Of a stretch of 64,000 nt of DNA, positions 334 to 63,906 are shown piece after piece (within the stretch, counting starts at the first letter, position 1; each line of letters starts with the position of its first letter). Source of the DNA: a virus; the IMG/VR virus record IMGVR_UViG_3300045988_135485. The stretch is one strand, 5' to 3'. The position numbers and the translations under genes were made by a program. The notes under the pieces are model-generated. The model saw only the letters and a program-made list of their open reading frames with translations, ran no database searches and was not told the DNA's origin.

Positions 334-356
334 TCTCTTGTCCTTTCACCAATCAA

Positions 357-947
357 TTAAGCCAAAACGTTTCCGCTGCAGCCGCAACCGCAACCATTCA
401 GGCCGGTAATGCCTAAACCGTTAATAATTGCAGCGTTCGGGCAAACAGCCCCTACACCGGTAACGTCAGGACGTTTCAACATCTGGCAGGAAATAGCAGC
501 CAGCTGTTTATCAACTTCACCAAACTTGCGGTCATTATACAGCTGATTTTCCAAAACCAGATTTTTACGCTGTGCCTCGGCCAGCTGATCGCGCAAGCCC
601 TGATATGCGTAGAAATCAATTTTTTCCGCAATCATACGAGAGTTTGCCGTATCATTTGCGCGGGTGAGGTTTGCCTGTTCTTCAACAAGATACTGCGTGC
701 GCGCCGAGTTTATAATTTCTTGTTTTTCTGAATTACAAATTGCTTTGTAATCTTCGAACCCAAGTCCATAGCCCGGTACGCCTACGCCGGTGGCGAAACC
801 ACTGGCCCAGTTCCCGCCGCAATTACCGCAGCTGTTACCAAACCAACCATTGCCGCAGCCGTTACGATTAAACAGAAACGCTACAACAATAAGGAAGAAC
901 AAGGCCAAAAAGCCAATGCCGCCCCAACTATAAGATTCTTTATCCAT
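357..947 (-). CDS. membrane protein: N-terminal TM helix, Gly/Cys-rich segment, coiled coil (possible i-spanin-like)
   Basis: 196 aa ORF. Hydrophobic stretch LALFFLIVVAFLF, repeats GCGNGWFGNSCGNCGG and C-terminal GCGCGCSG, heptad region. By hand count, 357-476 is about 54% GC versus about 35% in the early-gene block. Confidence 0.5.
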   Translation of the reverse strand: MDKESYSWGGIGFLALFFLIVVAFLFNRNGCGNGWFGNSCGNCGGNWASGFATGVGVPGYGLGFEDYKAICNSEKQEIINSARTQYLVEEQANLTRANDTANSRMIAEKIDFYAYQGLRDQLAEAQRKNLVLENQLYNDRKFGEVDKQLAAISCQMLKRPDVTGVGAVCPNAAIINGLGITGLNGCGCGCSGNVLA

Positions 948-974
948 AATCTTATCCTTTATTAAAGCCCGATA

Positions 975-1334
975 TTATTTGATCCGTTTCAGATTTTCCC
1001 TCAACCGATCCAACTCGCTGGCAGGGGCTTGTTCTGCCTGCGGGTTAAACTCTTTTGTATCATAAACACTTTCGGCCGTGTTTATGCCTTTCAATAAATC
1101 ATCTTTATTGCAGCCAAGTTTTTGGATTGCCCAACCCGCCAAAGGGTGATTTAATAACGATTTGGCTTTTTCAAAACTGGCTCGGTCAATACCTGCTTTT
1201 TGAAACACCTCTTGCGGATTATTTGAACCCTGCAAAATGTTCGTCGCAACATCATACGCCCGGCTTAACATCTGGGCTTTTTCGGGTTTTAAAAAGCGGC
1301 TCGCTACGTTCAGTATTAGCTGTTTGTTTAGCAT
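975..1334 (-). CDS. hypothetical protein
   Basis: 119 aa ORF in a minus-strand operon. Overlaps the next ORF, so the start is probably an internal Met. Confidence 0.4.
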   Translation of the reverse strand: MLNKQLILNVASRFLKPEKAQMLSRAYDVATNILQGSNNPQEVFQKAGIDRASFEKAKSLLNHPLAGWAIQKLGCNKDDLLKGINTAESVYDTKEFNPQAEQAPASELDRLRENLKRIK

Positions 1335-1662
1335 TGCTTTCTTTCTCCTCTAATTTTACGACTTTATCATTTAAGGCAGCCAAAGCGTTTGACATCTCCA
1401 ACATCATCGCTTGGGTGTCTTTTAAAACTTTCTGCGTTTCTTTGCTCATTTCTTCCGGCGTTTTAGGCTTTTCCAAAATGCCCTTATCATAAAGGATTTG
1501 CTCGTAATCCTTAGCCGTATCTATGGCTTTTTTGTATTCTTCATTCGTAACGCCGATTTGCTGATTAAAAGAATTATAAATTTTTCCGTTGCTCACAAAG
1601 CCGATAAAATTACTTTGTGTTGCGTTAATTTCCCGGTAATTAAAATTATTAAAATCTGTCAT
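1252..1662 (-). CDS. hypothetical protein
   Basis: Track ORF 1252..1734 trimmed to Met25 (MTDFNNF), which is preceded by AAGGGA. Confidence 0.45.
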   Translation of the reverse strand: MTDFNNFNYREINATQSNFIGFVSNGKIYNSFNQQIGVTNEEYKKAIDTAKDYEQILYDKGILEKPKTPEEMSKETQKVLKDTQAMMLEMSNALAALNDKVVKLEEKESNAKQTANTERSEPLFKTRKSPDVKPGV

Positions 1663-1806
1663 CGCTTGCCGTCCCTTTTTCAACAATATATTGCAAGAGG
1701 GCAAGCTGTAGTGTAGTAAAATAAAACATCGCAATCCCTCGCTTGGATTACGATGTTAGCAGATGTAAAACATTAGATACGCAAAAGTTGCGCGAAAATT
1801 AGGCAA

Positions 1807-2118
1807 TTAATCAGGTATGCTTTTAATGCTTTCCTCAATCAAGCCGACAGCAATCGCGTTAATTTTTTCAGAATTAGAATCAATTCGGCCGTCTAAAATC
1901 AGAAAGCCCGCGCACGCCAAAAACAGAACCGTCAAAAACGAAATAAGCCAGGTATACACCAAAACCTTAGCGTCCATGTGGACAATATTGACGTTTCGCG
2001 AATTTTTGATTTGCGCATTGCCGCAACTACTGTTTGTGTCCTTGCTGTAATGCTTACTCGTCGACGAGTTGCCGGAATTAAACCGATTCCCCGTCAAATT
2101 ACTGTTCTCGTTTTTCAT
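1807..2118 (-). CDS. small membrane protein (single central TM; holin-like candidate)
   Basis: 103 aa with hydrophobic stretch VLVYTWLISFLTVLFLACAGFLIL. Confidence 0.45.
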   Translation of the reverse strand: MKNENSNLTGNRFNSGNSSTSKHYSKDTNSSCGNAQIKNSRNVNIVHMDAKVLVYTWLISFLTVLFLACAGFLILDGRIDSNSEKINAIAVGLIEESIKSIPD

Positions 2119-2350
2119 TTTTAAAATCCCTAATCTTGTTTAAGACGTTCATAAAAATAGTGGTAACACTGCGCGGGCATTTTCCCACCTTTTCACTCAC
2201 GCCGTCGTTGTAATAATTCAGGCGCAAAAGAAATATGTTCAGCTCTTCATCGGTTAAATCAATGTCTGGAGATTTAAGAAGTTCAATAATTTTGCACTTG
2301 CGCATTTTTTTGAACTCGTTTGTTATATCCGATGTTTTACTACGTGGCAT
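2099..2350 (-). CDS. small HTH protein, sigma-70 region-4-like
   Basis: 83 aa with LTDEELNIFLLRL...GVSEKVGKCPRSVTTI pattern. A TATAAT box (2365-2370, reverse strand) sits 14 nt upstream of the start. Confidence 0.45.
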   Translation of the reverse strand: MPRSKTSDITNEFKKMRKCKIIELLKSPDIDLTDEELNIFLLRLNYYNDGVSEKVGKCPRSVTTIFMNVLNKIRDFKNEKREQ

Positions 2351-2423
2351 ATTTTTTACCTTAAATTATATGACAAATGAATTTTAAAACCTTTATTTGT
2401 TAAAAGTCAATCTATAAAAAAAT

Positions 2424-2447
2424 AACAGTCGTATAACGTCTATTATG
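2424..2447 (+). repeat. cassette repeat copy 1 (core ATAACGTCTATTATG)
   Basis: In frame it encodes SRITSIM, the same peptide as the fibre gene copy. Confidence 0.65.
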
Positions 2448-2849
2448 GGGACAGTTTATCCGGTCGGCAGCCTCTATTTTGGAACGCAAAGCACTTGCCC
2501 CCTTGCTGCTATTATTGACGGCTCTACGTGGGAAAAAGTAGGCTCGTCGCTGATTACTTCCGTTAACACAAGTGTCCCAGTCAAAGGAAACGGAAAAAGT
2601 ATGGGTTGGACAAACGGAGACGCAAATTTCGGTTGTTCGCAAGGTGATAATGGATACGGCTGGTTTTTCCCGAGCTTAACAAGTGAGGCATACGGTAAAG
2701 ATATAGGCGTTGTTCAAACAGGCAATGCAGGCACGCGTCCGTCAGGCAGTAAATTAATGGGTTTAACATCAGACGCAAATAATTCCGGTATTGTCGGAAC
2801 TGTTACACGGACGGCTTTAACAGTTAATATTTGGAAACGTACGGCATAA
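2445..2849 (+). CDS. tail-fibre C-terminal cassette (tail-collar-like receptor-binding module), promoterless and without ribosome-binding site
   Basis: 134 aa ending NIWKRTA. Its start codon lies inside the repeat ATAACGTCTATTATG. No Shine-Dalgarno sequence. Oriented opposite to the fibre gene. Confidence 0.5.
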   Translation: MGTVYPVGSLYFGTQSTCPLAAIIDGSTWEKVGSSLITSVNTSVPVKGNGKSMGWTNGDANFGCSQGDNGYGWFFPSLTSEAYGKDIGVVQTGNAGTRPSGSKLMGLTSDANNSGIVGTVTRTALTVNIWKRTA

Positions 2850-2862
2850 ATCCTAGCGTCTG

Positions 2863-2881
2863 ATAACGTCTATTATGAATA
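2863..2881 (+). repeat. cassette repeat copy 2 (ATAACGTCTATTATGAATA)
   Basis: 19/19 identical to the fibre-gene copy; encodes ITSIMN in frame. Confidence 0.65.
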
Positions 2882-3126
2882 GTTTTAAGCTTGATGTAGC
2901 TAAAAAACAGACAATAGAAAATTCCTTTACTGCCCCTTCTGCCGGTATATTATCTGTCATAAATACCGGCAAAGGGACTTATACTGTAACTATTGACGGG
3001 GTAGAAGTTGCAAGAAGTTTTTTCTACGATTCGCAAGATAAAACTTCAATAATTGTTCCTATCGGAGCCGGTCAAAAAGCAGAAATAACTTTTGGCGAAA
3101 AATATTTTATCCCTTATTCGTTTTAA
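2875..3126 (+). CDS. tail-fibre C-terminal cassette 2
   Basis: 83 aa. Start codon inside the second copy of the repeat. No Shine-Dalgarno sequence. Ends KYFIPYSF, resembling the current fibre end FYFIPED. Confidence 0.45.
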   Translation: MNSFKLDVAKKQTIENSFTAPSAGILSVINTGKGTYTVTIDGVEVARSFFYDSQDKTSIIVPIGAGQKAEITFGEKYFIPYSF

Positions 3127-3499
3127 ACTCTTCAAAAGTTTTAATCTGAATATCCGGGAAAGTAGGATCTTTTGTAATATCCCGCAAATACTGTTTATAT
3201 TGCAAAAGGTCAATAAAATCCTGCTCCGAATCGGTCGTTTCAATTCCAAGTATTTTTTGTTCCCGGTAACGGTCAAAACGCCAGTCAAGGCTTGACAACA
3301 TAAAATCTCTTGTTTCGCGTAAATCTGCTGCCTTTTCTTCTGCCGGCATTTTGCCCTTTAAATACCACCGGCCCGAAGTCCTGCACTGTTCAACATCGCC
3401 GGGAATAAATCCGTTTTCAGCTGCAAAATCTTCGCGGCCGCCAAAATATACTTGAACTTCGTTTTTTTCTTCATTTGTGATTTTATAAAACAACTGCAT
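3107..3499 (-). CDS. tfa: tail fibre assembly protein (Tfa/Mu U family)
   Basis: 130 aa. C-terminal LLQYKQYLRDI-type motif typical of caudoviral tail fibre assembly chaperones. Sits downstream of the fibre genes. Confidence 0.6.
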   Translation of the reverse strand: MQLFYKITNEEKNEVQVYFGGREDFAAENGFIPGDVEQCRTSGRWYLKGKMPAEEKAADLRETRDFMLSSLDWRFDRYREQKILGIETTDSEQDFIDLLQYKQYLRDITKDPTFPDIQIKTFEEFKTNKG

Positions 3500-3502
3500 A
3501 TT

Positions 3503-3781
3503 TTAAACTCCTTTACATTGAAATGTTATTGCGTTTCCGTAATCTGCGTGCGCTAAATTAAACGTTACATTTTTAGCTTGATAGCCCATAAAACTACCGT
3601 GTGAACTATCACGATTAACCTGCAATGAAGACGCGTATAAATATAAATCGCCATATTTAACGTGACTTGCACGATTTTTATTTAACCAACGGTCATTTGC
3701 CGTATCTACAGTATCGCCGTTTCCCTGGCTAACTCCTGTAAAATAATCAGGCTTTAAACAATAATTATCAATACTTGGCAT
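3503..3781 (-). CDS. hypothetical tail-fibre-associated protein
   Basis: Start MPSIDNY preceded by AAGGGGG. Ends ...QCKGV like the neighbouring 238-aa protein. Confidence 0.45.
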   Translation of the reverse strand: MPSIDNYCLKPDYFTGVSQGNGDTVDTANDRWLNKNRASHVKYGDLYLYASSLQVNRDSSHGSFMGYQAKNVTFNLAHADYGNAITFQCKGV

Positions 3782-3783
3782 AA

Positions 3784-4500
3784 TTAAACCCCCTTGCATA
3801 AAAATCTAATGTTGTTTGTGCCGCTCGTTCTAAAATATAAGCCCTCTTCAATAAACACTTGCGTTGATGGCTCTTGTGTTGCTGAAGAGACACCCTCGGC
3901 AATTGTTACAGCGTCGGACATATCCGATTTTGTAGCAATTTCGATTTTTCTCGTATTGCCGTAACTATTTAGCCATTGATCTTTTGTAGCGTAAATTATT
4001 TTATTTTGAGCAATCGAAAAACCGGTTGTATAATCAGGCATACGGACGAGCTTAAACCTGTTTTTATACGGAATTTTACCGTTTACAATTTTAGCATAGC
4101 AGCTGAAACCGGTGGCCATATTTGTAGTTTTCCACCACCAGCCTTTTGGAATCGGGAAAATACTACCGCCGCATGGATTCGATATGCCGGCCAAATGTTC
4201 CATATACATAATGCGAATTGTGTTATTTTCATTAAAATTACTATCCGGGCAAATATCACAAGTTTTAATTGCTTGGCTGGTACGGTTATTATAAAGGCAT
4301 AGGTAACCGTCGCCCAGAGTAAAGCTTGACGCAATGCCGTCTTGTATGCTTTCAGCCGTAGAAAAATCAGGCTGTTTTAAAAAGTCCGTATCTGGAACGG
4401 TTGAGGCATAAACAAGAGTTGAGCCTTTATAAATCTTTCCGATTTTAGTTTTGCCAAAATAAATATCCTCAATTTTTTTGCTCCCGATGTGAACTGTCAT
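3784..4500 (-). CDS. tail-fibre-associated protein (possible distal adhesin)
   Basis: Start MTVHIG preceded by GGAGGA. 238 aa ending ...LCKGV. Confidence 0.5.
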   Translation of the reverse strand: MTVHIGSKKIEDIYFGKTKIGKIYKGSTLVYASTVPDTDFLKQPDFSTAESIQDGIASSFTLGDGYLCLYNNRTSQAIKTCDICPDSNFNENNTIRIMYMEHLAGISNPCGGSIFPIPKGWWWKTTNMATGFSCYAKIVNGKIPYKNRFKLVRMPDYTTGFSIAQNKIIYATKDQWLNSYGNTRKIEIATKSDMSDAVTIAEGVSSATQEPSTQVFIEEGLYFRTSGTNNIRFLCKGV

Positions 4501-4501
4501 T

Positions 4502-6427
4502 TTAATCCTCCGGGATAAAGTAGAATGTATTTGCATTCGGGCTTGATGGCAAGCTTGCAACTACCTGTAACTTATTATTCATAATAGACGTTATGCGGCT
4601 GTTCACCCAAGCCGTCGTTGCAATTTTGGCAGAGGAATCTGCGGCGTCCGGAGGTGTAGGACAAGTCGCGTATTTTCTCCCGTCTTTAGTGCAAACTATT
4701 TGTAATAAGGCTGTAGAAGTACTATTATTTGCGGTTATTTGTGATAAAATATTCCCATCTTTCTCTTGATAAAACCCTATTTCTGAAATCCATTTATTAT
4801 TTTTATCAGAAACAAAAATCCTTGCTGATTCTTCAGCAGACGGATTCGTTGTTACGTCAATCTTAGTATGTTTAAAACCAAAACGCGGATTATTTGATTG
4901 TCCGGTTTTAACTCCGCTAAACGTTTCATCTCCGGAGCGGTGCAGAAGATTAAAATTTTGTGACGGGTCAGCAGCTCTCCCTGCTGTCATAATTGCTTGG
5001 TTGCTATAGTTGGTAGACGCGGCAGGGTGCGGGGCAGTTGCCCTTATGCCGTTATTATCATCTCTGTTTATCTGAATTGAACCAAGGATAGAAGAGCCAT
5101 CTTTAGACGCAACATACATTTGCATACAATCTAGATTGTCATCAGATTTATAATTTCGCAAACCACCAAGCCTAGTTGAACCGTCAGAAGTAAATTGAAC
5201 CTCTGTAGATGTATTGCCCGCTTTGTTTAATTTTATAGGGATACTTCCGTTAAGAACCTTTGTCCCTGTAATTGTTTCATTCCCTGTTCTATGGACAACA
5301 TTGGTAGATTTATTAGGGTCGTTGACCCACCCGTCAGTTGCAATAGAAGTACCTAATGTACTGGAACTGGCTGAAGGAATAGGAGCATAGGCTTTATCAG
5401 TTCTTAAAACAGAATAGGTTGTACTATTAGGGGTAACTCCTAGAGCTGTAATCGGCCATTTATTATTTTGAGTATTCGAATCATAGAAGGCCCCACCAAA
5501 AATAACTTCTCGGTTGCCGTTTGTTTCTTGTCTTCTAATTACACGCATTCCATCGGGCTTTCCGTCAGTATTGGTTGTTGTATCTATTATAATATCTTCA
5601 ATAGTTTCTTCTTTTTTTAATGAAGTAGAAGGAGGCATATTAGACCTGAATTTAGCAATCCCGTCAAAAACCTTCCTCCCGGTTATAGTCTGATTCCCTT
5701 GCAGGGCTACAAACGTACCATTGGCTTCCTCTTTGGTATAGTAGAGACCTAGATTAAGCTGGGCAAGAGCTTCGTTCAACGCGTCTTCAATATCTCCTAA
5801 GGCATTATTCACCGTTGTTTGTGCTAAATTTGCTGAAGCTTCGGCCGAATCCGCAAAGTCAGATGCTCTTTGTACTTGTACCTGTATCTGGGAAAGGGCC
5901 GTTTCAAGGGCGCTGTTAATACTGGCCAGTGCTGAAGAGGACGTACTTTGAATAAGTGCCAACACATCTTGAGCTTGAGACAAAACTGTCAAAGCATCTG
6001 CAAGCTGAGCTAAGAAAAATTCCGAAACCTGTTCCCCGTTCTTGTCCGAGGATATGGGGGTCTTTACACATCTGGACAATTCCTCTTTCAAGGTTTGCAT
6101 TTTACCTACTAAGAGTGAAAATACGCGGTCAAACGCGTCTTTATCCATTGCTCCACGATTATTGCCGGAATCGCTTACTTCCCAGTTAAGCGGTACAGCT
6201 CTGACTATTGTAACTACGGTATTGGTCGCTGGAGGGGTTGCGAATGTAACTGTATTAGCGGTAACATCAACAGTATATTCGCTTGTTTGTTTCTCCTCTC
6301 CAAGATAGACCAAAACAAATTCAGAGGAGATAAAACTAAAGTCGGCAGAGAAAACGGTCTTTTCTCCGTTTGCTATCTCCTGTAATCTGGGTAAAATATC
6401 CTCAATCGTAGAAATAGAACCGCTCAC
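4502..6427 (-). CDS. side tail fibre protein (Mu S/P2 H/lambda Stf-like)
   Basis: 641 aa with long coiled coil and repeated xTITGxKxF fibre repeats. Contains an in-frame copy of the cassette repeat 26 codons before its stop. Confidence 0.75.
   Translation of the reverse strand: MSGSISTIEDILPRLQEIANGEKTVFSADFSFISSEFVLVYLGEEKQTSEYTVDVTANTVTFATPPATNTVVTIVRAVPLNWEVSDSGNNRGAMDKDAFDRVFSLLVGKMQTLKEELSRCVKTPISSDKNGEQVSEFFLAQLADALTVLSQAQDVLALIQSTSSSALASINSALETALSQIQVQVQRASDFADSAEASANLAQTTVNNALGDIEDALNEALAQLNLGLYYTKEEANGTFVALQGNQTITGRKVFDGIAKFRSNMPPSTSLKKEETIEDIIIDTTTNTDGKPDGMRVIRRQETNGNREVIFGGAFYDSNTQNNKWPITALGVTPNSTTYSVLRTDKAYAPIPSASSSTLGTSIATDGWVNDPNKSTNVVHRTGNETITGTKVLNGSIPIKLNKAGNTSTEVQFTSDGSTRLGGLRNYKSDDNLDCMQMYVASKDGSSILGSIQINRDDNNGIRATAPHPAASTNYSNQAIMTAGRAADPSQNFNLLHRSGDETFSGVKTGQSNNPRFGFKHTKIDVTTNPSAEESARIFVSDKNNKWISEIGFYQEKDGNILSQITANNSTSTALLQIVCTKDGRKYATCPTPPDAADSSAKIATTAWVNSRITSIMNNKLQVVASLPSSPNANTFYFIPED
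4576..4603 (-). repeat. cassette repeat copy 3 inside the fibre gene (inverted relative to copies 1 and 2)
   Basis: Reverse strand AACAGCCGCATAACGTCTATTATGAATA encodes ...NSRITSIMNN, 26 codons before the fibre stop. Confidence 0.65.
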
Positions 6428-6469
6428 TTTAGTTACCTCCTCTGAAACTGTCCGATTTGCAGTTTTAGA

Positions 6470-9247
6470 TTACTTTAAACTAAATTGATAGTCAAGTGCT
6501 TTTAGAACATCCTCATCACTCATTATCTTTCCCCAGACCTCTTCTGGTAACCAATCTACTTCCGGAGCCTCGTCCAGTTCTATTTGACCGAGCGGAGCCT
6601 TTTCCTTGTCAAACGGCTCAAAAGTTCTTCCCATTGATACAGAAGAGTTAAGTTTACAAACCTTCATTAGCCAAGGTTGGTCACACATAACTCTCTTCAC
6701 TAGGTCTCTATACTCAAGAACAAATTTACAATCTACACTGGCTACAATCTCGTCATGAACCGGAACCATAATTCTTACTTGGTCTGGTGTCCATCTCTTC
6801 TCTATTTCCTGTTGTAAATTCCACATAGCCCTCTTCGCTAGTGCGGCCGCCGTCCCTTGTATCTTCGAGTTCACGGCCTGATTCCTAGCCCGGGTTTGGG
6901 TTAATTTTATAAACTTACGGAGAAAGTTACGAACTCCTTGACTATCGTATGCATTGAGAAATTTATTTCTCATAATTTCCGCCCACAGGTCTGTTGTCTC
7001 AAACTTAAACCGTCGGTGACCATCAGGAAGGTCCACATATCCATCCTGAATCGCCGAAGATATAACGCTTAATCTCCAGTTTTCCAGCGTGGAGAATTTG
7101 CTACGATAAGCTTCTACTTTATTCCAATGTTCATCATCTGACCAGCCTAATTTTTCCTGCAAATTAGACAAGGCTCCAGAATATAGATAGCTAAAATTAG
7201 CCCCTTTCCCCAGTTCTGTTCTCGCCCATTTATAAAATTTAGCTGGCTGTAGTTGTTCTCCTTTGGTATTTACCAGATGGACTCCTTTATACTCTTCAGT
7301 TCCTTCAGGAAGATGCTTTATTGCTTTAAAGTCCTCTATGGAAAGATTCAACATCGCAGCAGCGGCGGCTGAGTGAAGGTCTCCCGGAGGAGTTGTACTG
7401 TAACATTCCACGAACTCCGGGTCTTGCGAAAGTTCACCCGGAATCACTAACTCGACGGCTGACCAGTCAGAGGACATAATTACTTGCCTATCTGGATAGT
7501 CAGCGAGATAGAATCCACGAACATAAGTAGATTCTCCGCGTTTACTTAATTGCTGCGGATTCGGGTTAGACATACTCATTCTACGAGTAGCCAATGTGGA
7601 GGAAATGCTGGGATAAACTTTACTGGTTTCCGGGTCGGTTAAATATAAGTACGGATTTAAATATAGTTTACATACTTGGTCTACTTGAGTTAATTTATTC
7701 ATACAATTTAGCAGTCTTGCCTCAGGCGTATCTTCTTCGTAAGACTCCAGCATCTTTCCTCTGGAATCTTTTCCTGACTGAATTTTACCTTTAACCTTTA
7801 TAGCCTTATGTCCCATTAAATCATAATAAATAGTTCTGCTTGGCATATAATGTACAAGGTTAATAATTCCTTTATTAACTTTTAAGTCTACGTCTTCCGT
7901 ATATGACTTTGTGATACCCCCGTTAATTTGAAGGATTTGTTTCATTACTCCTTCCGGAGAATCGTCATAATCTGGGGCATAAGCAAAGTCTTTGATTTGT
8001 TGACGGTATTTTCTCCAGTTCTTTTGGTACCAGGTTTCTGACTTCATAAGTGCTTCATTCGGTTCGACAGGAAACGGGAGAAGCTGTCTGAAAATAGTTT
8101 TTATCTCTCTTAATGTGTGGGCAGCTTTTTTTCTTTCTTCGTCTCTCTTCTTATAAACAGCCTTCAGGTCTATGTTTAATCCATAAGACTGTATATTAGT
8201 AAAGATGTCAGCCATTTTGTTCTCTTGGATAAAGAAAGTATTCCAAGCAGATGGGCAATTTTCTTGAATAAAGTCATAGAGAGCTTTATAGAGTTGAACA
8301 CACCAATAGGAATCTGACGCACCATAAAACATAACTTCTTCTCCAGTTAAATGACCCATGTGTGGTTCCTCTTGGAAATAAGGTCTATATTGCAGATACT
8401 TTTTATCTTTCAAGACAATATTTCTTTTTTTGGCATATTCAGACTTAGCCAAACATTCGTCATAGTGTTCCATTCTATAACCAAAAAAGGATTCGACAGC
8501 TTGTTTCAATCCGTACCCGATGGAGATTGACTTCAAGAATCCGTTATAAGAATGCGCAGCCTCGCTTTGTTTTCCGCAAACTTGACCAACTAACTCAGCC
8601 TGTTGTGGATTCAACTCTTGGTAGCCATCCCAGTTCTCGAAAGCTTGCGAAATGGCTGGTAGTAATTTTCTTATCTCTCCCAAGTCAGCATTACAGAATT
8701 TATCAAAGGAATAGGAATCGGAAGAGTAGGCAGATACACATAACTGTAACGTATCTATGTAATTAAAAATCTCGTAGTTATAATACATACGCATCATAAC
8801 TTTTTCAAACTGTGCATTATGGATAATTAACGTATGTTTCTGCATTTCTTCCATAAGAGAATAAATAGTTTCCCAAGCTAGTCTGTTCTCCATATCTCTC
8901 TGGTTAAGATTTATATAGTAACAAAAAGTATCTCCTTCTGGATAAATAGAAAAACCTGTAACTACTGTACGTCTAATATCAAAAACATTCTTACCAAGAG
9001 AATTAAATTTCTTTATTCCTTCATGAGCGTTCCCATTATGTGTTTCCAAATCGAATCCGGTGTATGGAGCTGTTTTTACTTTCTCAATAAGAATAGGAAG
9101 AAAGAAATCTATGTTACGCCTATCTACAAGAATTGTCTGTATGTCCTCAGTCCTATAATTCTTTAAGTTAATTGTCTTTAACATCACCCTTCTCCACAAG
9201 TTTCCAATGATACCCTCCAGTCCTGTAAGCTCTTTTATTGCAGACAT
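6470..9247 (-). CDS. polA: DNA polymerase I family (3'-5' exonuclease plus Pol A domains)
   Basis: 925 aa. Exo I motif FDLETHN; Pol A motif A DWSAVELV; motif B RTELGKGANFSYLYSG; motif C VHDE. Confidence 0.9.
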   Translation of the reverse strand: MSAIKELTGLEGIIGNLWRRVMLKTINLKNYRTEDIQTILVDRRNIDFFLPILIEKVKTAPYTGFDLETHNGNAHEGIKKFNSLGKNVFDIRRTVVTGFSIYPEGDTFCYYINLNQRDMENRLAWETIYSLMEEMQKHTLIIHNAQFEKVMMRMYYNYEIFNYIDTLQLCVSAYSSDSYSFDKFCNADLGEIRKLLPAISQAFENWDGYQELNPQQAELVGQVCGKQSEAAHSYNGFLKSISIGYGLKQAVESFFGYRMEHYDECLAKSEYAKKRNIVLKDKKYLQYRPYFQEEPHMGHLTGEEVMFYGASDSYWCVQLYKALYDFIQENCPSAWNTFFIQENKMADIFTNIQSYGLNIDLKAVYKKRDEERKKAAHTLREIKTIFRQLLPFPVEPNEALMKSETWYQKNWRKYRQQIKDFAYAPDYDDSPEGVMKQILQINGGITKSYTEDVDLKVNKGIINLVHYMPSRTIYYDLMGHKAIKVKGKIQSGKDSRGKMLESYEEDTPEARLLNCMNKLTQVDQVCKLYLNPYLYLTDPETSKVYPSISSTLATRRMSMSNPNPQQLSKRGESTYVRGFYLADYPDRQVIMSSDWSAVELVIPGELSQDPEFVECYSTTPPGDLHSAAAAAMLNLSIEDFKAIKHLPEGTEEYKGVHLVNTKGEQLQPAKFYKWARTELGKGANFSYLYSGALSNLQEKLGWSDDEHWNKVEAYRSKFSTLENWRLSVISSAIQDGYVDLPDGHRRFKFETTDLWAEIMRNKFLNAYDSQGVRNFLRKFIKLTQTRARNQAVNSKIQGTAAALAKRAMWNLQQEIEKRWTPDQVRIMVPVHDEIVASVDCKFVLEYRDLVKRVMCDQPWLMKVCKLNSSVSMGRTFEPFDKEKAPLGQIELDEAPEVDWLPEEVWGKIMSDEDVLKALDYQFSLK

Positions 9248-9707
9248 TACTTATATTACCTGGATTACAATGTTTCCTTTTACTGGCTTCAGACATGGAT
9301 TCAAAAATCTCTCCCGTTTCTACACATAGAACAGGTTTTCCATATAAAGCTGTCTGTGCTAACTTCATTTTTAAGTTTCTTAGACCATAGTTAGCATTAT
9401 AGAGGCTACTACACCATTCTAGATTTTCGACTTTGTTATTCAGTCTGTCCTCGTCTATATGGTTTACTTGTGGTAAATTATCAGGGTTAGGAATAAAAGC
9501 TTCTGCAACTAATCTGTGTATTTCTTTACCTTTATGAATAGGACGTTTATGGAAATTTATTTTTAAATAGCCGTTCGTACCTAAAAAAGGTTTTAGATTT
9601 CTTACTAAATGCTTTCTTGCATAATTCAAGCTTCTAACATTACCATAATTACTAATCTGATAATAACCTTCAAACCCTTTTATATCCTTCCATATCTCTT
9701 CTGTCAT
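9168..9707 (-). CDS. HNH homing endonuclease (free-standing)
   Basis: 179 aa with GFEGYYQISNYGNVRS N-terminal motif and VNHIDEDRLNNKVENLEW HNH core. Overlaps the polymerase 5' end. Confidence 0.75.
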   Translation of the reverse strand: MTEEIWKDIKGFEGYYQISNYGNVRSLNYARKHLVRNLKPFLGTNGYLKINFHKRPIHKGKEIHRLVAEAFIPNPDNLPQVNHIDEDRLNNKVENLEWCSSLYNANYGLRNLKMKLAQTALYGKPVLCVETGEIFESMSEASKRKHCNPGNISNVCNKRAYRTGGYHWKLVEKGDVKDN

Positions 9708-9720
9708 TTTATGTTTTTCC

Positions 9721-9780
9721 TAATAAAAAGGTGAGGATATAGGGGAAAAACTACTGTAAACAGTACCTATAGAGCCTCAC
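9721..9780 (-). terminator. rho-independent terminator upstream of HNH gene
   Basis: Reverse-strand hairpin GTGAGGCTCTATAGG...CCTATATCCTCAC followed by CTTTTTATT. Confidence 0.5.
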
Positions 9781-9862
9781 GAAGTGTTTTGTTTTTCCTA
9801 ATTTATAATAATATTGATTCTTTCTGAATGTCAAGCATTCTTTATTCTCTCCCAAGCTAAAA

Positions 9863-10486
9863 TTATTTTAAATGCTGTCCATCCTTCAGGCTTATTCTAC
9901 GAATTGTGAACTCATTAGGATTAGACGCATTATAATGCCTACTCCATATAAACCACCCATGATTATACATATTAGAGACGGTTTTTCCAGTATAACTATC
10001 TGCTCTCATCTTTAACCTTTCTTTTATAAGATATTCAGTCATCAGATGACCACCTGAAAGTATATCTTCTCTGGTTTTAGAACTTTCTGAATAAGCGTGT
10101 CTAAGAAGCATTATGATAACGTCAGCTCCATATTTGAAAGCTTGCCTAATATAATTATCAGCAATGGAATAAGGTGGGTTTGTTAAAACAATAAAGGGTT
10201 CTTTAGGGACATATTCCTCAGCGTGGAAGAAATCCACCCCTCCGATACCAACACCTCTATCAATCAGGTCGGTTTCCAGTATTTTATTAGAGAGATTATC
10301 TTTAAGAACCTTGGAAATAGCCCCTTTTCCGCAACTCGGTTCCCATATAGTATAAGCATAATGTATGCTTAAATTAGCCAATAAGGCTCTTGTAGCTTCC
10401 GGAGGTGTTTCGAAAAAATCCTCTTTAGGACGTTCATAGCCTTCAGTTGTAATGGTATATAAACCTTTAAAACCGTTATTTGCCAT
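9863..10486 (-). CDS. DNA methyltransferase (N6-adenine/N4-cytosine type, NPPY)
   Basis: 207 aa with motif I EPSCGKG and motif IV LTNPPYS. Confidence 0.7.
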   Translation of the reverse strand: MANNGFKGLYTITTEGYERPKEDFFETPPEATRALLANLSIHYAYTIWEPSCGKGAISKVLKDNLSNKILETDLIDRGVGIGGVDFFHAEEYVPKEPFIVLTNPPYSIADNYIRQAFKYGADVIIMLLRHAYSESSKTREDILSGGHLMTEYLIKERLKMRADSYTGKTVSNMYNHGWFIWSRHYNASNPNEFTIRRISLKDGQHLK

Positions 10487-10498
10487 TCTGACTGTCTC

Positions 10499-10783
10499 CT
10501 ATTTTACTTTCGGGTCTTCCAAAATCTCTCTGTCAACCAAGTCATACAAACGGTCAAAACCCTCATCGTCCCACTTATCTTTCTTTAACCTCTCTATTTC
10601 AGAAAGAATTTTCCGTTTAGCGAACGTTTGTTCTGTTATAAGCCTAAGTGCTTCATCTATTACATTAGTTGCTTTCCTAATCTTCACACTAGCGGGTGCC
10701 AGATTAAAAATAGTATCACTAAGATTATCCTTATATTTATCATTATAGTTATTACCATTATCGAAAGGATTCCACCAACTCAT
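10499..10783 (-). CDS. hypothetical protein
   Basis: 94 aa ORF in the operon. Confidence 0.4.
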   Translation of the reverse strand: MSWWNPFDNGNNYNDKYKDNLSDTIFNLAPASVKIRKATNVIDEALRLITEQTFAKRKILSEIERLKKDKWDDEGFDRLYDLVDREILEDPKVK

Positions 10784-10797
10784 ATTATTTCTCCCAA

Positions 10798-11646
10798 TTA
10801 AATTGTTAAACTAAAAGTTCCTAATTTTTCCTGAGCCACGTCTATCTGTCCATTTCCAGCAAAAAAGTGTTCCTGAATATCCTTAACCGGTACAGGAATA
10901 AAACTGACCAGATTGTACCATGTCTGTAATTCTCCCGAATGATAGGCATCGGCTATTTTATTGGCTAATACTTCCGACAGTTCCTCTGCTAATAGATTCT
11001 CAAGACTACCCTGCATACTCTGTAAAAGGTCACTAAATAAAACAAGGTCTTCTTCTTTTCCATATTCAAGATAGAAGAATACAGTTAAGAAATCTTTAGC
11101 ATAGTCACTTAACTTATTCCAAGCCGCTTCGCCGAACCCTTTCACTCCCGGTATATTATCAGAGGGGTCGCCGACTAACATTTTATAAGTCTTTACCCAT
11201 TTTGGCTCTACCGCTGGTTCTTTAAGCGTTCCTATATTTGGAGAGATTCTTAACTGTGTCAGGTCTCGGTCAGTGGACACAATGTCCATCTTATCGTCAT
11301 TAGAGGCCATTTTAACTGTAATAGTAGCTATAACGTCATCAGCTTCATATTCTGGAACCTCGACTGTTTTCACATTTATAGGAGCGTACTTAAGCAACTC
11401 CTTAAAAAACTTCATACCATCATAAATAGACTGGTCAGCAGGTTTCCTCTTCGCTTTATATGCAGGGTAAATAGCTTTCCTCTTTTTACGGGAATTGACA
11501 CCATCAAAGATACAGAAGATAAGGTCTTTCTGGTTCGCACCAGCAAGAATTTCCTGCCACAATGTAAAAAGAGAGGCACCGCCCATAGATTCTGCCATCT
11601 TTACGCGCAGCCAGTTATTCATATCGTAGATTAAAATTCTTCGCAT
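10798..11646 (-). CDS. 5'-3' exonuclease / flap endonuclease (T5 D15/PolI-N family)
   Basis: True start probably MRRILIYD (track ORF extends to 11814). IFDG..SRKKRKAIYPAYKAKR motif present. Confidence 0.7.
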   Translation of the reverse strand: MRRILIYDMNNWLRVKMAESMGGASLFTLWQEILAGANQKDLIFCIFDGVNSRKKRKAIYPAYKAKRKPADQSIYDGMKFFKELLKYAPINVKTVEVPEYEADDVIATITVKMASNDDKMDIVSTDRDLTQLRISPNIGTLKEPAVEPKWVKTYKMLVGDPSDNIPGVKGFGEAAWNKLSDYAKDFLTVFFYLEYGKEEDLVLFSDLLQSMQGSLENLLAEELSEVLANKIADAYHSGELQTWYNLVSFIPVPVKDIQEHFFAGNGQIDVAQEKLGTFSLTI

Positions 11647-11703
11647 TTTATTCTCCCAAGAGCTAACAAGAAACCGACAAAAAACCAACAGGAAAAAGCA
11701 AAT

Positions 11704-11737
11704 AGTTAAAAAAGGAGGGTAGTTCAGGCTACCCTCC
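11704..11737 (-). terminator. rho-independent terminator
   Basis: Perfect 9-bp stem GGAGGGTAG/CTACCCTCC followed by T6 on the reverse strand. Confidence 0.55.
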
Positions 11738-11755
11738 GCCGTCAATAAGGACAGT

Positions 11756-12613
11756 CTAGAAAGGTTCCGAAACCAAGCCCAGATTATGAGCCTGTTCAAA
11801 CGGAACATATTCAAAGTCTACCAAAGCCCAGTTATTAGAGTTTTTAGAAACATCTCTTCTGGTCAGTTTAACATAAACTTCTTCTCCGCGTTCTCTTACT
11901 TCCTGTGGCAGATTTCTGTAAAAGTCAACCCACGGCTTCCAGTTTGTCGTCGAGGTTGTATGACCGATTACAGTCCCGACTGCGGCAACGGTATTACCGG
12001 AGAAGCCCTTTACTTCTTTAATAACAGTCATTGGTAAATCAACGCAGTTATAGGGTCTCGCTTTCGGGTCTTTTTTCTGAATATCGGCAACAGCCTCCAG
12101 CCAAGAGCCACCGGAAAGACAAACTTTACCGTCAACGGTAGAAGCATAAGATACCGGCTGGCCGCCTTTAATAGACAACTTGGCAACTACATTGCTAAGG
12201 TTAATGGCTACATAAATTTCTTTATCACCAACAACATCGTTACCAATAAAGGTCTGTTGATATTTTACCTTCAAATAGTTATCTACAACCATCTGATTAG
12301 ACATAAGGTCATCCATCGTATAGGAAGTACCGTTAGCCGGGGCTGCCATCGCTTGATTGGAAACATTATTTGTCGGGATATTTGCTGCTACGGGAGCTGT
12401 TACAGGAGCTGTTACAGGAGCTGCTACAGGAGCATTCATAAGTCCTGCTGCTGGGGGAATCGGAGCAGAGACCGGAGCTGCGGCCTGCTGAGCTAAAGCC
12501 TGAGAATTTTGATAAGCTTTATAAATTTCCCAATCAGCTGAATCTTCCGGACCCGGAACATTGCCTGTTTGTAAAAGCTGGTTGAAGTAATTAATTTTTT
12601 CAGGTGTCAACAT
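11756..12613 (-). CDS. hypothetical protein with Pro/Ala-rich linker (possible ssDNA-binding protein)
   Basis: 285 aa with APVTAPVTAPVAA repeats (DNA 12-nt tandem at about 12370-12440) and C-terminal ...SEPF tail reminiscent of SSB tails. Confidence 0.35.
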   Translation of the reverse strand: MLTPEKINYFNQLLQTGNVPGPEDSADWEIYKAYQNSQALAQQAAAPVSAPIPPAAGLMNAPVAAPVTAPVTAPVAANIPTNNVSNQAMAAPANGTSYTMDDLMSNQMVVDNYLKVKYQQTFIGNDVVGDKEIYVAINLSNVVAKLSIKGGQPVSYASTVDGKVCLSGGSWLEAVADIQKKDPKARPYNCVDLPMTVIKEVKGFSGNTVAAVGTVIGHTTSTTNWKPWVDFYRNLPQEVRERGEEVYVKLTRRDVSKNSNNWALVDFEYVPFEQAHNLGLVSEPF

Positions 12614-12809
12614 ATTATTTTCCTTTCAATATGTTTGTTCGGTTTGTTCAATTTTGGTGGGAGGGTCATAAAGGCGCAAATTCCCTTTCCGTATTCCCTC
12701 CCATATTTCTGGTTCCTGCCAGTTGGTTTACTGACTTTAGCCGTCTCTAGGTATGGAACCAAAATACCTATCACCTCTTATCGACGGTTAATTGATGACG
12801 AGATAATCT

Positions 12810-13055
12810 TTACAGCTTAGTATTCTTCTTGTCAAGTAAAAAATTTAATAATTTATTAACTTTTCCCTGTTTTTTCTTCAACTTTTCTTTCAATAACTCA
12901 TTTACTATTAAATTGGCTACTATCCAAGAAGTATAACCGATGTCTTTAGTTTCGTTTAGGTCTTCTTCAGCATACATAATCCCTCTCTGGATAGCTAATA
13001 AAAGGTCATTCTTCTTAATGATTATTTCCTCACCATTAAATCTTTCATCTAACAT
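12810..13055 (-). CDS. hypothetical protein
   Basis: 81 aa ORF. Confidence 0.4.
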   Translation of the reverse strand: MLDERFNGEEIIIKKNDLLLAIQRGIMYAEEDLNETKDIGYTSWIVANLIVNELLKEKLKKKQGKVNKLLNFLLDKKNTKL

Positions 13056-13824
13056 CTATCTTCTCCTTTATGGCCCTTTGTTCTCTTTCAGTAGGAGTAT
13101 TATAAGCGGCGATTCCTGATTCGTTATACATTACTTGTCCTTTGTCTGTGGATAACTCGAATTTGTAAGTATAATCTCCTTCCGTATGTTCTTTTAAACA
13201 ATAGGCTATAGAATTGTCTACGAGTTTATAAAAATGTCCTACTTCCGGCTTTATTTTCTTTCTGCGTAAGACATACCAGTAATCTGAAGAAGTATCAATA
13301 GCAGCATTAACCATAAGCAGGTTACTTTCTCCTGTAAAATCATCTTTGTAAAAACGGCACAGGATATTGTCTTGTAATTTATAGAAGAAGTTAGAGCCTT
13401 TGCAAAAAACAGTAGAGCCTTTAGATAATTCGTATGTAATAGTATCTTTAGAGATAAAAACTTTCTCAAAACCATTAAATGTCTCTTGTGGGGGGGTCAT
13501 TTCTTTCTCAAATTCGATATTACTGGAACTATCGTTTTGGCTATTGTTTTGGCTGTTGCAATAGGCATCATAAAGAGATGTACTGGAAGAATTATTATAA
13601 GATTCATCTGATACTTCTCCTTTACCTTTTTCCATAAGCCTAAGCATAAATTCTCTTACCTTATCATTTCTTATGCTTGTCTCTTTTCGCGTTAAAATGT
13701 TAAGAACTGTACCATAACAAATTCCTTCGTCTTTACACAGTCCTTTTAAAGAATTATAGCCTTCTGCCTTTAATCCTTTATAGATTGCATCTCTATCAAT
13801 ATTGTAAACCCTATATTTTCTCAT
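13045..13824 (-). CDS. hypothetical protein with N-terminal HTH-like region
   Basis: 259 aa with ICYGTVLNILTRK near the N-terminus. Confidence 0.45.
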   Translation of the reverse strand: MRKYRVYNIDRDAIYKGLKAEGYNSLKGLCKDEGICYGTVLNILTRKETSIRNDKVREFMLRLMEKGKGEVSDESYNNSSSTSLYDAYCNSQNNSQNDSSSNIEFEKEMTPPQETFNGFEKVFISKDTITYELSKGSTVFCKGSNFFYKLQDNILCRFYKDDFTGESNLLMVNAAIDTSSDYWYVLRRKKIKPEVGHFYKLVDNSIAYCLKEHTEGDYTYKFELSTDKGQVMYNESGIAAYNTPTEREQRAIKEKIDVR

Positions 13825-13994
13825 ATTAATTCTCCTTTATAATTCTACTTATAACTCTACTTGTAACTCTCACAATTCTTTTTCAAAGACTACGACCATA
13901 AATAATAGGTCAATTTCAAAGACCGCAGTCTCTTCCAATTCATACCAACAAAAACCAAAAAGAAGTCCGTTTTGCAAAAAACCAAATCTAACTG

Positions 13995-14159
13995 TCATAA
14001 TCTTTTACTCCATCTTAATCCATTTTTATTCATATAACGCATAAGCCAAAGAATATGCTTATCACTAAGCACAGGAAATAGCTCATTACCATAATAATCA
14101 ACTAAATTTATGTGCTTATATTTTATAGCTCTACATAAAATAAGATATTTTTTATTCAT
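13995..14159 (-). CDS. small ORF (54 aa), below the 60-aa cutoff
   Basis: ATGA start/stop overlap with the upstream gene. Reads MNKKYLILCRAIKYK... Confidence 0.3.
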   Translation of the reverse strand: MNKKYLILCRAIKYKHINLVDYYGNELFPVLSDKHILWLMRYMNKNGLRWSKRL

Positions 14160-14494
14160 TGTTCTTCACTTTTCCTTAGTATAGTATTGATACGTTTTAA
14201 TAATTTTTCATCCTCTTCATGACCAACAGTGGTCATTTCCATACAAAGAAGAACTCTTTCTTTACACTCTTTCAACAAATCTAAAAGTTCACCATATCTA
14301 TTTACTTTATCAACAAAATCTTGCAAACTTGAACAACCCGGACATTCTACTTTATCGCCGTTCGGGAATCGAAAAGCGAAAGTAAAATTTAAATTATTTA
14401 CTGTAGTCACAAGCCTACCATCAGTTTTAAAATATTCAGTAGTATCTGCACCTTTTCTTACCAATAATCTTTCATCAGTCATTTTTTTTCTCAC
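14156..14494 (-). CDS. hypothetical protein
   Basis: 112 aa ORF; likely start MTDERLL. Confidence 0.45.
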   Translation of the reverse strand: MRKKMTDERLLVRKGADTTEYFKTDGRLVTTVNNLNFTFAFRFPNGDKVECPGCSSLQDFVDKVNRYGELLDLLKECKERVLLCMEMTTVGHEEDEKLLKRINTILRKSEEQ

Positions 14495-14598: not shown

Positions 14599-14610
14599 CT
14601 TTTCCTCACT

Positions 14611-62725: not shown

Positions 62726-63877
62726 ATGGCCAATAACGACGATATTACAGATTACAATTACCCTAACATTGAACCTACTGACTATATTGATGAATCTTTA
62801 CCCAATATATTGGCCAGAGATGATGCTTCCAAACATGGGTTCAGGCGTGTTTCCACTTTCCCGACTGTGACTACGGACGACGTTGGTATGAGGGTATATA
62901 TGAGGGGACGTGGGAACTTTCAGTTAATTTCAGCTGACCCCGAGCCCCAATGGAAACAACTGTCCGAAGACAATCGTAATCCTGCTTATACAGATTGGGT
63001 GAAGGACAACTATCAACCCCTTAGTAAAATATTGACCACTCTTTCAAAATTAAAAGAAGCCCAGCAAGCAGTCCCTTATTTTAACGGGCCGGAAGATATG
63101 CAAGCTGTCACGATTACTAGATATATGCTGGCTCTTTTTGAGGCTACGGATGACGCTGAGGTCAGGGAATTGCTTAACTTAGGTTCAGCTGCAACCATTG
63201 ACGTTCCTATTGATGGAAAATACATTGCAGACGGGTCTATCACAATGGATAAGGTCAGTACCCAATTTAAACAATCTTTAGGCTGGACTACTGGCGATGC
63301 AAAGTTGACCTTTAAAAAAACGGCTGATGAAGGTTGGATAATGCTTGATGACGGCTCTATTGGTTCTTCTGCTTCCGGAGCAACAACACGGGCTAATTCC
63401 GATACCTATGACTTGTTTATGTTAATGTGGGACATTCCTTATTGTGAAATCCAGACCTTCTCCGGGACCTCTTCCACGAAGACAACAGCAATCCAAGATT
63501 GGTCTGCAAATAAAAGATTGGTCTTGCCAAAGTTCTTAGGTCGTGCCATCGCCTGCGCCGGTCAAGGTTCCGGATTAACGAAACGGTCGCTTGGTGAATC
63601 GTTGGGAGAGGAGAACACCGTCTTAGGCATTAATCAGCTCCCGCGCCATAATCACGGGGACTTGGTGTCAATTCAATCCAACGTCGGTAGTAAGAACGGC
63701 AGAATTGCTTATTGGGTAGGCTCTAGGCAATACAACAGACTCGGGCGCACCGATGAACATACAATCATAGAAGAGGACGATTACTATGCCGGTACCGCTG
63801 AAGCTGGCGGTGGAGGTAATGCAGGCCATAACACAATGCAGCCGACCACATTCGTAAATGTGATGCTGAAGCTTTAG
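62726..63877 (+). CDS. tail fibre protein with phage tail-collar domain
   Basis: 383 aa with LPKFLGRAIACAGQGSGLT...HNHG...NTMQPTTFVNVMLKL. Confidence 0.65.
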   Translation: MANNDDITDYNYPNIEPTDYIDESLPNILARDDASKHGFRRVSTFPTVTTDDVGMRVYMRGRGNFQLISADPEPQWKQLSEDNRNPAYTDWVKDNYQPLSKILTTLSKLKEAQQAVPYFNGPEDMQAVTITRYMLALFEATDDAEVRELLNLGSAATIDVPIDGKYIADGSITMDKVSTQFKQSLGWTTGDAKLTFKKTADEGWIMLDDGSIGSSASGATTRANSDTYDLFMLMWDIPYCEIQTFSGTSSTKTTAIQDWSANKRLVLPKFLGRAIACAGQGSGLTKRSLGESLGEENTVLGINQLPRHNHGDLVSIQSNVGSKNGRIAYWVGSRQYNRLGRTDEHTIIEEDDYYAGTAEAGGGGNAGHNTMQPTTFVNVMLKL

Positions 63878-63906
63878 TTAATCGGAACTAGTTAATCGAC
63901 AGTATC

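Follow-up and report, generated by a model that had tools for sequence, protein, structure and literature searches.

The 64,000-nucleotide (nt) stretch of viral DNA in IMG/VR record IMGVR_UViG_3300045988_135485, called the window below, contains a tail-fibre locus that we read, from sequence comparison and with a probability of about 0.78, as a multi-cassette invertible switch (shufflon) for the distal end of the fibre. The fibre gene (4502..6427, minus strand) encodes 641 amino acids (aa) and its C-terminus reads ...WVNSRITSIM followed by NNKLQVVASLPSSPNANTFYFIPED. One candidate recombination site (site F) lies within this gene, and two facing sites (sites 1 and 2) each head a promoterless ending without a ribosome-binding site. 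Conservative recombination of site F with site 1 would flip 2448-4579, and the resulting fibre of 749 aa would have a Gp10_C-like tip; with site 2 as the partner, 2878-4579 would flip and the fibre would have 698 aa, with a tip of 82 residues. As the window stands, the fibre ends in a 25-residue tail, after which a 238-aa, a 98-aa and a chaperone-like protein would be read. As a tail-fibre shufflon, the locus has no linked recombinase; its novelty lies in this absence in two phage backbones and in a distinct site. The sites and endings, with open reading frames (ORFs) where applicable, are as follows.

4595..6427, minus strand: constant part of the fibre, residues 1 to ~611 of 641, ending ...ATTAWVNSR
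4574..4603, minus strand: recombination site F, within the fibre gene, CAGCCGCATAA-CGTCTA-TTATGAATAAT, encoding SRITSIMNN
4502..4579, minus strand: expressed ending, the 25-residue tail NNKLQVVASLPSSPNANTFYFIPED and its stop codon, read directly from the sequence
2875..3126, plus strand: silent cassette 2, ORF of 83 aa, 82 residues past the junction, NSFKLDVAKKQ...KYFIPYSF
2856..2883, plus strand: recombination site 2, GCGTCTGATAA-CGTCTA-TTATGAATAGT
2445..2849, plus strand: silent cassette 1, ORF of 134 aa, 133 residues past the junction, GTVYPVGSLYFG...NIWKRTA
2424..2453, plus strand: recombination site 1, the outer boundary, CAGTCGTATAA-CGTCTA-TTATGGGGACA

The core of the sites is the 15-mer ATAACGTCTATTATG. 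A pattern search of the window found three exact copies, at 2433-2447 and 2863-2877 on the plus strand and at 4580-4594 on the minus strand. When up to two mismatches were allowed there were four matches (0.20 expected; four were reached in 0 of 100 shuffles), the fourth of which, at 45884 with two mismatches, was rejected as unrelated. A repeat finder reported a 24-nt inverted repeat, 2424-2447 and 4580-4603 (92%), and a 19-nt inverted repeat, 2863-2881 and 4576-4594 (100%). Both searches thus bear out the three 15-bp copies with extensions to 19-24 bp described in an earlier note on this DNA, and the ORF list agrees with it in placing the two oppositely oriented copies at the heads of the convergent ORFs 2445..2849 and 2875..3126. 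Each of these ORFs begins at an ATG inside its repeat copy. The reading frame RITSIM is kept in all three copies. The copy in the fibre is in frame as well; the distance of 26 codons to the stop given in that note needs a small correction, as the M is followed by 25 residues and the stop is itself the 26th codon. Inversion of 2433-4594 in silico gives the 749-aa fibre and inversion of 2863-4594 the 698-aa fibre, both in frame.

A 26-nt direct repeat, by rough estimate beyond chance, was also observed at 2189-2214 and 4599-4624 (22 of 26 positions identical). The latter copy abuts site F on the constant side and codes for IATTAWVNS, and the former lies in another frame inside an 83-aa helix-turn-helix gene. 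Possibly the repeat is a remnant of an older fibre end.

The inverted states were found in relatives. Below, L001-L126 denote relatives' DNA around homologues of the fibre, the cassettes or an invertase, and P-numbers denote protein clusters. The alignment of the window with L018, a ~40-kb contractile-tailed phage (myovirus), falls into three blocks.

Window 4580-5281 and L018 8196-8891: collinear, 84%
Window 2424-4603 and L018 8868-11614: inverted, 96.9-97.5%
Window 1-2447 and L018 11591-14037: collinear, 99.3%

Adjacent blocks overlap by exactly the 24-nt repeats, and the breakpoints therefore lie inside the repeats, the left one in site F and the right one in site 1. The fixed flank beyond site 1 is collinear and 99.3% identical whichever way the segment is oriented. 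L005 and L018 represent one myovirus, with flanks 97.3% and 99.3% identical, in which the segment has opposite orientations. In a clade of 73-kb genomes, L001 11840-13817 corresponds to L004 13805-11831 inverted (1979 bp from site to site, 97.2%), and the downstream flank is collinear (99.2%). Further pairs differing by inversion are L001/L012, L004/L008 and L003/L004. The comparison with homologous phages suggested in the earlier note thus yielded the flipped segment in both L018 and the L001/L004 pair.

Junctions of the other predicted states were also observed. L124 reads from the constant part into cassette 1, site 2 and cassette 2. L123 reads from the end of cassette 1 through site 2 into the tail cassette and the gene after the tail, which is the reciprocal junction of the cassette-2-expressing state. 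Every junction predicted for three states is present in independent assemblies, and in these close relatives the sites, the in-frame fusions and the breakpoints within the sites are all directly visible. Among natural proteins, at least 10 different endings follow the constant part, with RITS(I/V)M as the junction. Cassette 2 is the fibre ending in P0065, in more than 20 other clusters and in L019. Cassette 1 is the ending in P0088 and P0099, with a close variant in P0119, and is fused at the DNA level in L018, L086 and L124. The products of the window constructed in silico agree with the natural proteins at the junction, and the cassettes of the window are 96-97% identical to copies expressed elsewhere. 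The earlier proposal that inversion fuses an alternative C-terminus in frame is therefore supported by relatives in each state, with breakpoints at the repeats, and by natural fusion proteins. We infer that the inversion recurs and is site-specific, as opposed to a rare accident; it would presumably change receptor specificity.

The same fusions bear on a simpler explanation, in which the convergent ORFs are ordinary independent small genes and the 15-mer is a conserved start region. Gene callers do list them as stand-alone ORFs (124-134 aa) in over 40 clusters. However, the same sequences are fused to the fibre at exactly this point in relatives, and the frame continues upstream through RIT/ITS in every copy. 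Cassette 1 is a Gp10_C-like fibre-tip domain (Pfam Gp10_C, 0.0019; many homologues have a precomputed PF21939 match) without an attachment part. Direct reading of the 30 nt 5' of either convergent ORF revealed no GGAG-type ribosome-binding site, so that the lack of Shine-Dalgarno sequences noted earlier holds, and no promoter match above random level faces these ORFs. The explanation by independent genes is hardly tenable.

The length of some repeats suits a second alternative, inversion driven by homology without any dedicated recombinase, through RecA, phage single-strand annealing or template switching, with selection and gene conversion keeping the repeats alike. In many relatives the repeat spans ~100 nt, comprising the site and tail coding sequence, and in L001 it is 98% identical. 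The genes linked downstream to the tail variants VVSSL and VVDEL are not the same in L001 as in L004, which points to exchange or conversion inside the repeat. No recombinase gene was found among the scanned ORFs of either backbone, and the myovirus has a RecT-like protein (a weak match) with an adjoining nuclease-like gene (recognised by eye only). Finally, a second fibre locus of the window is flipped on a 62-64-nt repeat without a dif-like or Din-like core; homology-driven inversion thus evidently occurs in these phages. At the locus considered here, on the other hand, the partner sites of the window, L005 and L018 share 15-24 nt only, and yet the segment flips among flanks that are 97-99% identical. 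RecA-dependent exchange drops steeply under ~25 nt of identity. The junctions of cassette gain, loss and fusion fall in the shared core of 14-19 nt.

The conservation of the site also speaks against this alternative. In every relative a 16-mer is restricted to the fibre locus, where it occurs in 2-5 copies, in both orientations and always in frame; these 2-5 copies per locus are seen in two unrelated phage backbones, to which the module is common. About 55 distinct site instances were compared, of which 38 are silent copies with a non-coding left flank. In the latter, the conserved span is ~24 nt, GTCGC-ATAAC-K-TCT-R-TTAT-GAATA, the flanks being unrelated. The span is symmetric about the dyad centre, where 6 nt separate the inverted arms CATAA and TTATG. 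There are two site variants, with centres CGTCTA and CTTCTG. They differ at two positions only, both in the centre and always linked, and no hybrid centre was found among the ~55 instances. The codons ATA-ACK-TCT show no synonymous variation, whereas neighbouring codons vary. The symmetric retention in silent copies, the fixed codons and the confinement of variation to the centre argue against homology-driven inversion, which we consider unlikely as an explanation of this locus.

The cores also appear to serve in gain and loss of cassettes. The distal site of L001 combines the left flank of the outermost site of L004 with the right flank of its middle site, and the difference between the two is best read as a ~300-bp cassette gained or lost by crossover inside the shared 14-nt core. 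In L019 the fibre is fused to cassette 2 and cassette 1 is missing at this place; this contig looks chimeric and is given little weight.

Other arrangements of the sites were observed. In L019 (ENA ERZ1304612 NODE_36, 8000-12000) two constant parts face each other across one invertible segment, and the baseplate genes that precede them come from a different phage in each case; this layout reflects either misassembly via the shared module or recombination of two phage genomes at the sites. In L002, 14221-14268, two site copies stand head to head as a 48-nt near-palindrome resembling an "empty" cassette. In both L002 and L010 the expressed site copy is at codon 37 of a separate 158-aa ORF (…LYAVEASSLITSVMNN…) and not in the 625-aa fibre.

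At the second fibre locus, 62726-64000, a 383-aa tail-collar-like fibre (62726..63877, plus strand) ends in ...SLGEE followed by NTVLGINQL..., and on the reverse strand 63880-64000 contains the last part of an alternative ending (...QEPDISMGTAGESKPFNVMQPTVFVNVMLKL and stop). In all five relatives that were compared (L013-L017, ~10800-11470) the QEPDISMGTAGESKPFNVMQPTVFVNVMLKL-type ending is expressed and NTVLGINQL is a silent inverted cassette. The window copy of the repeat is at ~63549-63612 and its partner lies past the window end. By this comparison the window is flipped relative to the five relatives.

Several observations weigh against the multi-cassette switch. Firstly, no fusion to cassette 1 or 2 was found in any of ~60 full-length fibre homologues of the 73-kb clade, nor among the best 120 matches. 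Secondly, all cassette fusions are on a shorter fibre of the myovirus type, not on the 641-aa fibre. Thirdly, the evidence is a comparison of assemblies, in which the alternative states each come from different samples. Fourthly, at the corresponding position the homologous fibre of L121 reads CGCATAATTAAC, which encodes NRIIN, and part of the left arm (CGCATAA) may thus be inherited coding sequence. Finally, another phage may be the source of the leftmost 2.8 kb, which comprises cassette 1, site 1 and the flank. To these are added the coreless flip of the second fibre locus, described above, and the site scores and the recombinase search, described below. As a hint of mixed populations, the ends of the short contigs L122-L124, which have cassette 1, were compared with the sites, and no clean coincidence was seen. 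No near-identical DNA was found in GenBank phages, and a search of annotated relatives with the fibre protein yielded only a 60-residue match in a lemur-gut virus.

The doubt about the left end can be extended to the whole locus, if the window is an assembly chimera of a 73-kb phage and a ~40-kb myovirus joined via the shared fibre module. Over window 1-2447 the identity to the myovirus (L018, L020) is 99.3%, as against 70-78% for other 73-kb phages. The closest relative, L126, which is of the 73-kb type, is collinear with the window up to 2843 and diverges exactly at site 2. Given this divergence and the myovirus-like left end, either natural recombination or chimeric assembly could have produced the window. 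Between the two backbones the invertible segment has 96-100% identity, and L019 looks like just such a chimera. However, natural exchange of modules between co-infecting phages gives the same picture. Moreover, the same three-site arrangement, with the tail expressed, cassettes 2 and 1 convergent and the same flank, is found inside the myovirus itself (L005, L037, L122), so that the finding stands whichever genome owns the locus of the window. A chimeric assembly is, in our view, quite unlikely.

No gene for the switching enzyme was found near the sites. Pfam scans revealed no Resolvase, Phage_integrase or IS110-type domain in 40 ORFs of the window, and no recombinase domain either in 10 ORFs of the ~9-kb part of the genome outside the window (read from L016) or in 10 ORFs of the ~40-kb myovirus. 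In particular, PF00239 is absent from the 40 window ORFs and the 10 ORFs of the outside part, and PF00589 from the scanned ORFs of the window, L016, L022 and L106. No HxLRH-type motif occurs in ORFs of at least 100 aa, and no recombinase signatures were seen in the six-frame translation. The absence of a visible serine or tyrosine recombinase from the window, reported in the earlier note, is thereby corroborated, and the search it proposed in the rest of the genome, run on the ~9 kb via L016, found none. Since the genome encodes no recombinase, the enzyme would have to be supplied in trans.

A serine invertase gene was nevertheless observed in the closest relative. L126 is 97.05% identical to the window over 11.4 kb (window 14172..2843), and just outside this collinear block, at L126 1664-2143 and 8 kb upstream of the fibre, there is a gene of 159 aa whose Resolvase catalytic domain is complete (1e-38). 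The gene is cut after residue 158 and has no helix-turn-helix DNA-binding end. Its full-length homologues (P0231-P0234) have 200-222 aa, 85-98% identity, and are found on contigs up to 46 kb; more distant relatives are labelled Pin-like, and identity to coliphage invertases is ~36%. The syntenic slot of the window (~14172-18393) contains 4.2 kb of unrelated small genes, and a tblastn search with the L126 invertase gave no match to the window. No site copies were found on IMG/VR contigs with homologues of this invertase (50-59% identity at best), and no contig is common to the lists of invertase and fibre homologues, although that is a weak comparison. Thus, among the scanned phage ORFs and the contigs with L126-invertase homologues no recombinase is tied to the sites. 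A small serine invertase of the kind left in L126 is a possible candidate for the enzyme.

The truncated gene could instead mean that the invertase has been lost and switching has ended, the cassettes being spare parts moved by rare exchange between phages. The window has no invertase gene and the copy of L126 is already truncated; all full-length 641-aa homologues express the tail; and L005 and L126, which are closest to the window in the cassette region, have its orientation. On the other hand, the three cores of the window are identical over 15 nt and have the same centre, so the sites remain compatible. The cassettes are intact ORFs whose similarity to expressed copies (96-97%) was given above, and invertases acting in trans are known in the Pin systems of E. 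coli (PMC12529663). We consider a frozen relic quite unlikely.

Further indications of the enzyme were sought in the sequence of the multi-cassette sites themselves. A matrix of the Din family was derived from 16 published Gin, Hin, Cin, Pin and Min sites (PMC3241671, Table 3), the site criterion being 26 bp, TTC---AAAC- -A -GTTT---GAA, with a 2-bp core. The dyad centre of our sites is the conserved TC, and by geometry alone they are compatible with this family. However, their overall scores are -6 to -17 (best -6.1, -8.4 and -6.5), as against 7.2-33.7 for known sites, and none of them is among the top 12 Din-matrix matches of the window. The Din-site hypothesis was rejected on this matrix test. 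A likeness to loxP and to the Bacteroides Mpi repeat was dropped as partial and coincidental.

A second matrix was built from 48 proteobacterial dif sites (PMC2731167). This matrix ranks the three sites 1st, 2nd and 4th of ~128,000 window positions, site F containing the best dif-like 28-mer of the window. Their scores are 7.7-11.9 bits, whereas true dif sites have a median of 29; a match of at least 11.9 is found somewhere in 15% of random 64-kb sequences. At a site fixed beforehand, the chance of such a score is ~1e-6 per position. The left arm, (A/G)GTCGCATAA, equals some alphaproteobacterial dif arms, e.g. AAGTCGCATAA of Mesorhizobium. The outer arm on the XerD side fits poorly; it lacks the conserved A at position 25, and in cassette 1 it reads TTATGGGGAC. 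A host Xer-type tyrosine recombinase acting on dif-like sites is a more tentative candidate for the enzyme than the serine invertase. That the phage borrows the chromosome-dimer resolvase of its host, the sites being degenerate dif and the cassettes being shuffled by XerC/XerD or a single Xer-like enzyme, is doubtful.

There are weak hints of a proteobacterial host. The terminase is closest to those of ~80-kb phages of Proteobacteria, a GapR-like domain is present, and genome bins of Alphaproteobacteria contain related cassettes and invertases. A search of 185,579 species genomes for a prophage or host gave only a short spurious match (60%) in Sporosarcina and no related prophage. One contig of an Alphaproteobacteria bin (L121, GCA_051885555.1, 9900-12200) is prophage-like. 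It encodes a 609-aa fibre with a Gp10_C-like tip (…NIWKRTA and stop) and a convergent homologous cassette, the repeat being 63 nt long with 90% identity and starting TCGCATAATTAACATTCTG; a Phage_integrase gene is 4 kb away. The same design is seen here in a host that is probably proteobacterial.

The fibre has ~60 near-full-length homologues (79-92% identity) in human-gut metagenomes, and residues 377-390 contain a BppL_N motif. The current ending is an adaptor tail ahead of a separate 238-aa gene, and so more than a short C-terminus. The last tail codons, CCGGAGGAT, contain the GGAGGA ribosome-binding site of that gene, and a NNKLQVVASLPSSPNANTFYFIPED-type tail is present in at least 30 fibre homologues. 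In L001, L004 and L018 the tail is a silent inverted cassette. The remaining genes of the expressed arm and the flank are as follows.

3784..4500, minus strand: 238-aa gene after the tail (MTVHIGSKKIEDIYFGK...), from the ORF list
3503..3799, minus strand: 98-aa gene of the invertible segment, from the ORF list, with no Pfam or PHROG family match
3107..3499, minus strand: 130-aa gene, tail-fibre assembly chaperone-like by Pfam and PHROG, the last of the expressed arm
2099..2410, minus strand: fixed flank outside the invertible DNA, a promoter-like site (2410-2381) and an 83-aa helix-turn-helix-like gene

The 238-aa gene has no Pfam or PHROG match; its position suggests a separate receptor-binding protein of the current state. 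Its counterparts have 237 aa in L126 and 427 aa in L005, L018 and L019, the longer form with a weak F5/8 type C (discoidin) match. An indel of ~565 bp near the 5' end (L005 10883-11449, L018 10922-11486) separates the two forms. The 98-aa gene is kept in L126 (98 aa) and L018 (92 aa). The 130-aa ORF matches Pfam Phage_tail_APC at 8e-5, below the family cut-off, and PHROG tail-fibre and assembly families at 6e-10 to 1e-5. The promoter-like site of the flank is TTGACT-18-TAAAAT (10 of 12 positions).

Mobile insertions were seen in other genes. The 807-aa helicase of the myovirus (L022 10010-12433, L106 18-2441) is seemingly split by an intein-like insert, with a 190-aa endonuclease-like ORF in another frame (both recognised by eye). 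The window has HNH-type endonuclease genes at 9168-9707 and 32920-33402. The former overlaps the start of a DNA polymerase gene. In L002 and L126 its counterpart has precomputed matches to NUMOD4 and HNH_3; in L001 its place is taken by a methyltransferase, and it is therefore a variable insert.

Switching of tail fibres by DNA inversion is a classic route of host alternation for phages. In every fibre switch known to us to have been worked out, the invertase accompanies the switch. The family of human-gut phages described here, which is well populated, would have a multi-cassette switch and no linked recombinase. If the enzyme comes from the host or from resident elements, host range would depend on the last cell in which the phage had grown, and if it is supplied in trans, the short sites would be portable joints for exchange of receptor-binding modules. 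For host-range prediction and engineering of gut phages, the silent cassettes would need to be read and not the expressed gene alone. The 24-nt site is also a possible compact recombination target. Should the Xer enzymes prove responsible, unrelated co-infecting phages could trade receptor-binding modules via the same sites, which would explain why a 40-kb myovirus has a module nearly identical to that of a siphovirus-like genome of 73 kb, and this would be the first Xer-driven phase variation of a tail fibre; a literature search found no relevant report of Xer-driven inversion of phage tail fibres.

The design resembles the Mu G and P1 C segments, inverted by Gin and Cin. There is a constant part with the crossover within coding sequence, inversion changes the tip, and one arm carries the variable part and an assembly chaperone while the other carries a convergent alternative. 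The Mu-G- and Min-like layout proposed in the earlier note is supported in its constant, variable and chaperone parts. The sites do not fit the Gin/Hin/Cin/Pin/Min matrix; there is no match to gix or cix (-6 to -17 bits, compared to 7 to 34 for known sites; PMC3241671). Moreover, Mu and P1 have two states and an invertase gene beside the segment, whereas the locus of the window has three or more and none was found in its genome. Again unlike Mu and P1, one state of the window has a short tail, the tip being handed to a separate gene.

In having several cassettes and short sites in both orientations (up to five in relatives) that allow successive inversions, the locus is closer to the p15B Min and R64 Rci shufflons. 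Min (a serine recombinase) and Rci (a tyrosine recombinase) are encoded beside their own shufflons, whereas the locus of the window has no adjacent recombinase. The mix and sfx sequences are unrelated to our site and, unlike the situation in these systems, deletion or insertion of cassettes between direct sites also appears in relatives of the window.

Supply of the enzyme in trans is established for the P segment of E. coli e14, where a tail fibre is inverted by PinE, PinQ and PinR encoded elsewhere in the cell (PMC12529663). However, e14 has its own pin gene and the genome of the window has none that was found, and the L126-type invertase family (P0231-P0234) is only ~36% identical to Pin-like enzymes. 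In a comparison with Xer/dif, the sites fit an 11-6-11 geometry with the inner arms CATAA / TTATG and vary only in the 6-nt centre. The absence of an own recombinase recalls elements that borrow XerC/XerD of the host. Unlike true dif, the sites score far lower and have a poor outer arm on the XerD side.

The closest parallels come from other gut phages. A BV01-like phage of Phocaeicola has a multi-cassette shufflon that overlaps the 3' end of a tail-fibre gene, as here, and all its configurations have been observed in populations (PMC13596623). That locus differs in having a flanking recombinase and a directional 10-nt motif, TGGGAGAACT, and in belonging to a temperate phage of Bacteroidaceae (PMC13596623). 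The Rin shufflon of bifidophages includes a tyrosine invertase, and its 11-nt site is asymmetric (PMC6109161). Similarly to our locus, it is found in gut phages, its receptor-binding endings each follow a short repeat, and its inversions were inferred from genome comparison (PMC6109161). A second bifidophage locus has no recombinase and shows a single inversion at an 8-nt repeat; an invertase acting in trans has been proposed for it and described as unreported in phages (PMC6109161). Compared to that locus, the type found in the window is multi-cassette and is present in many genomes and in two phage backbones.

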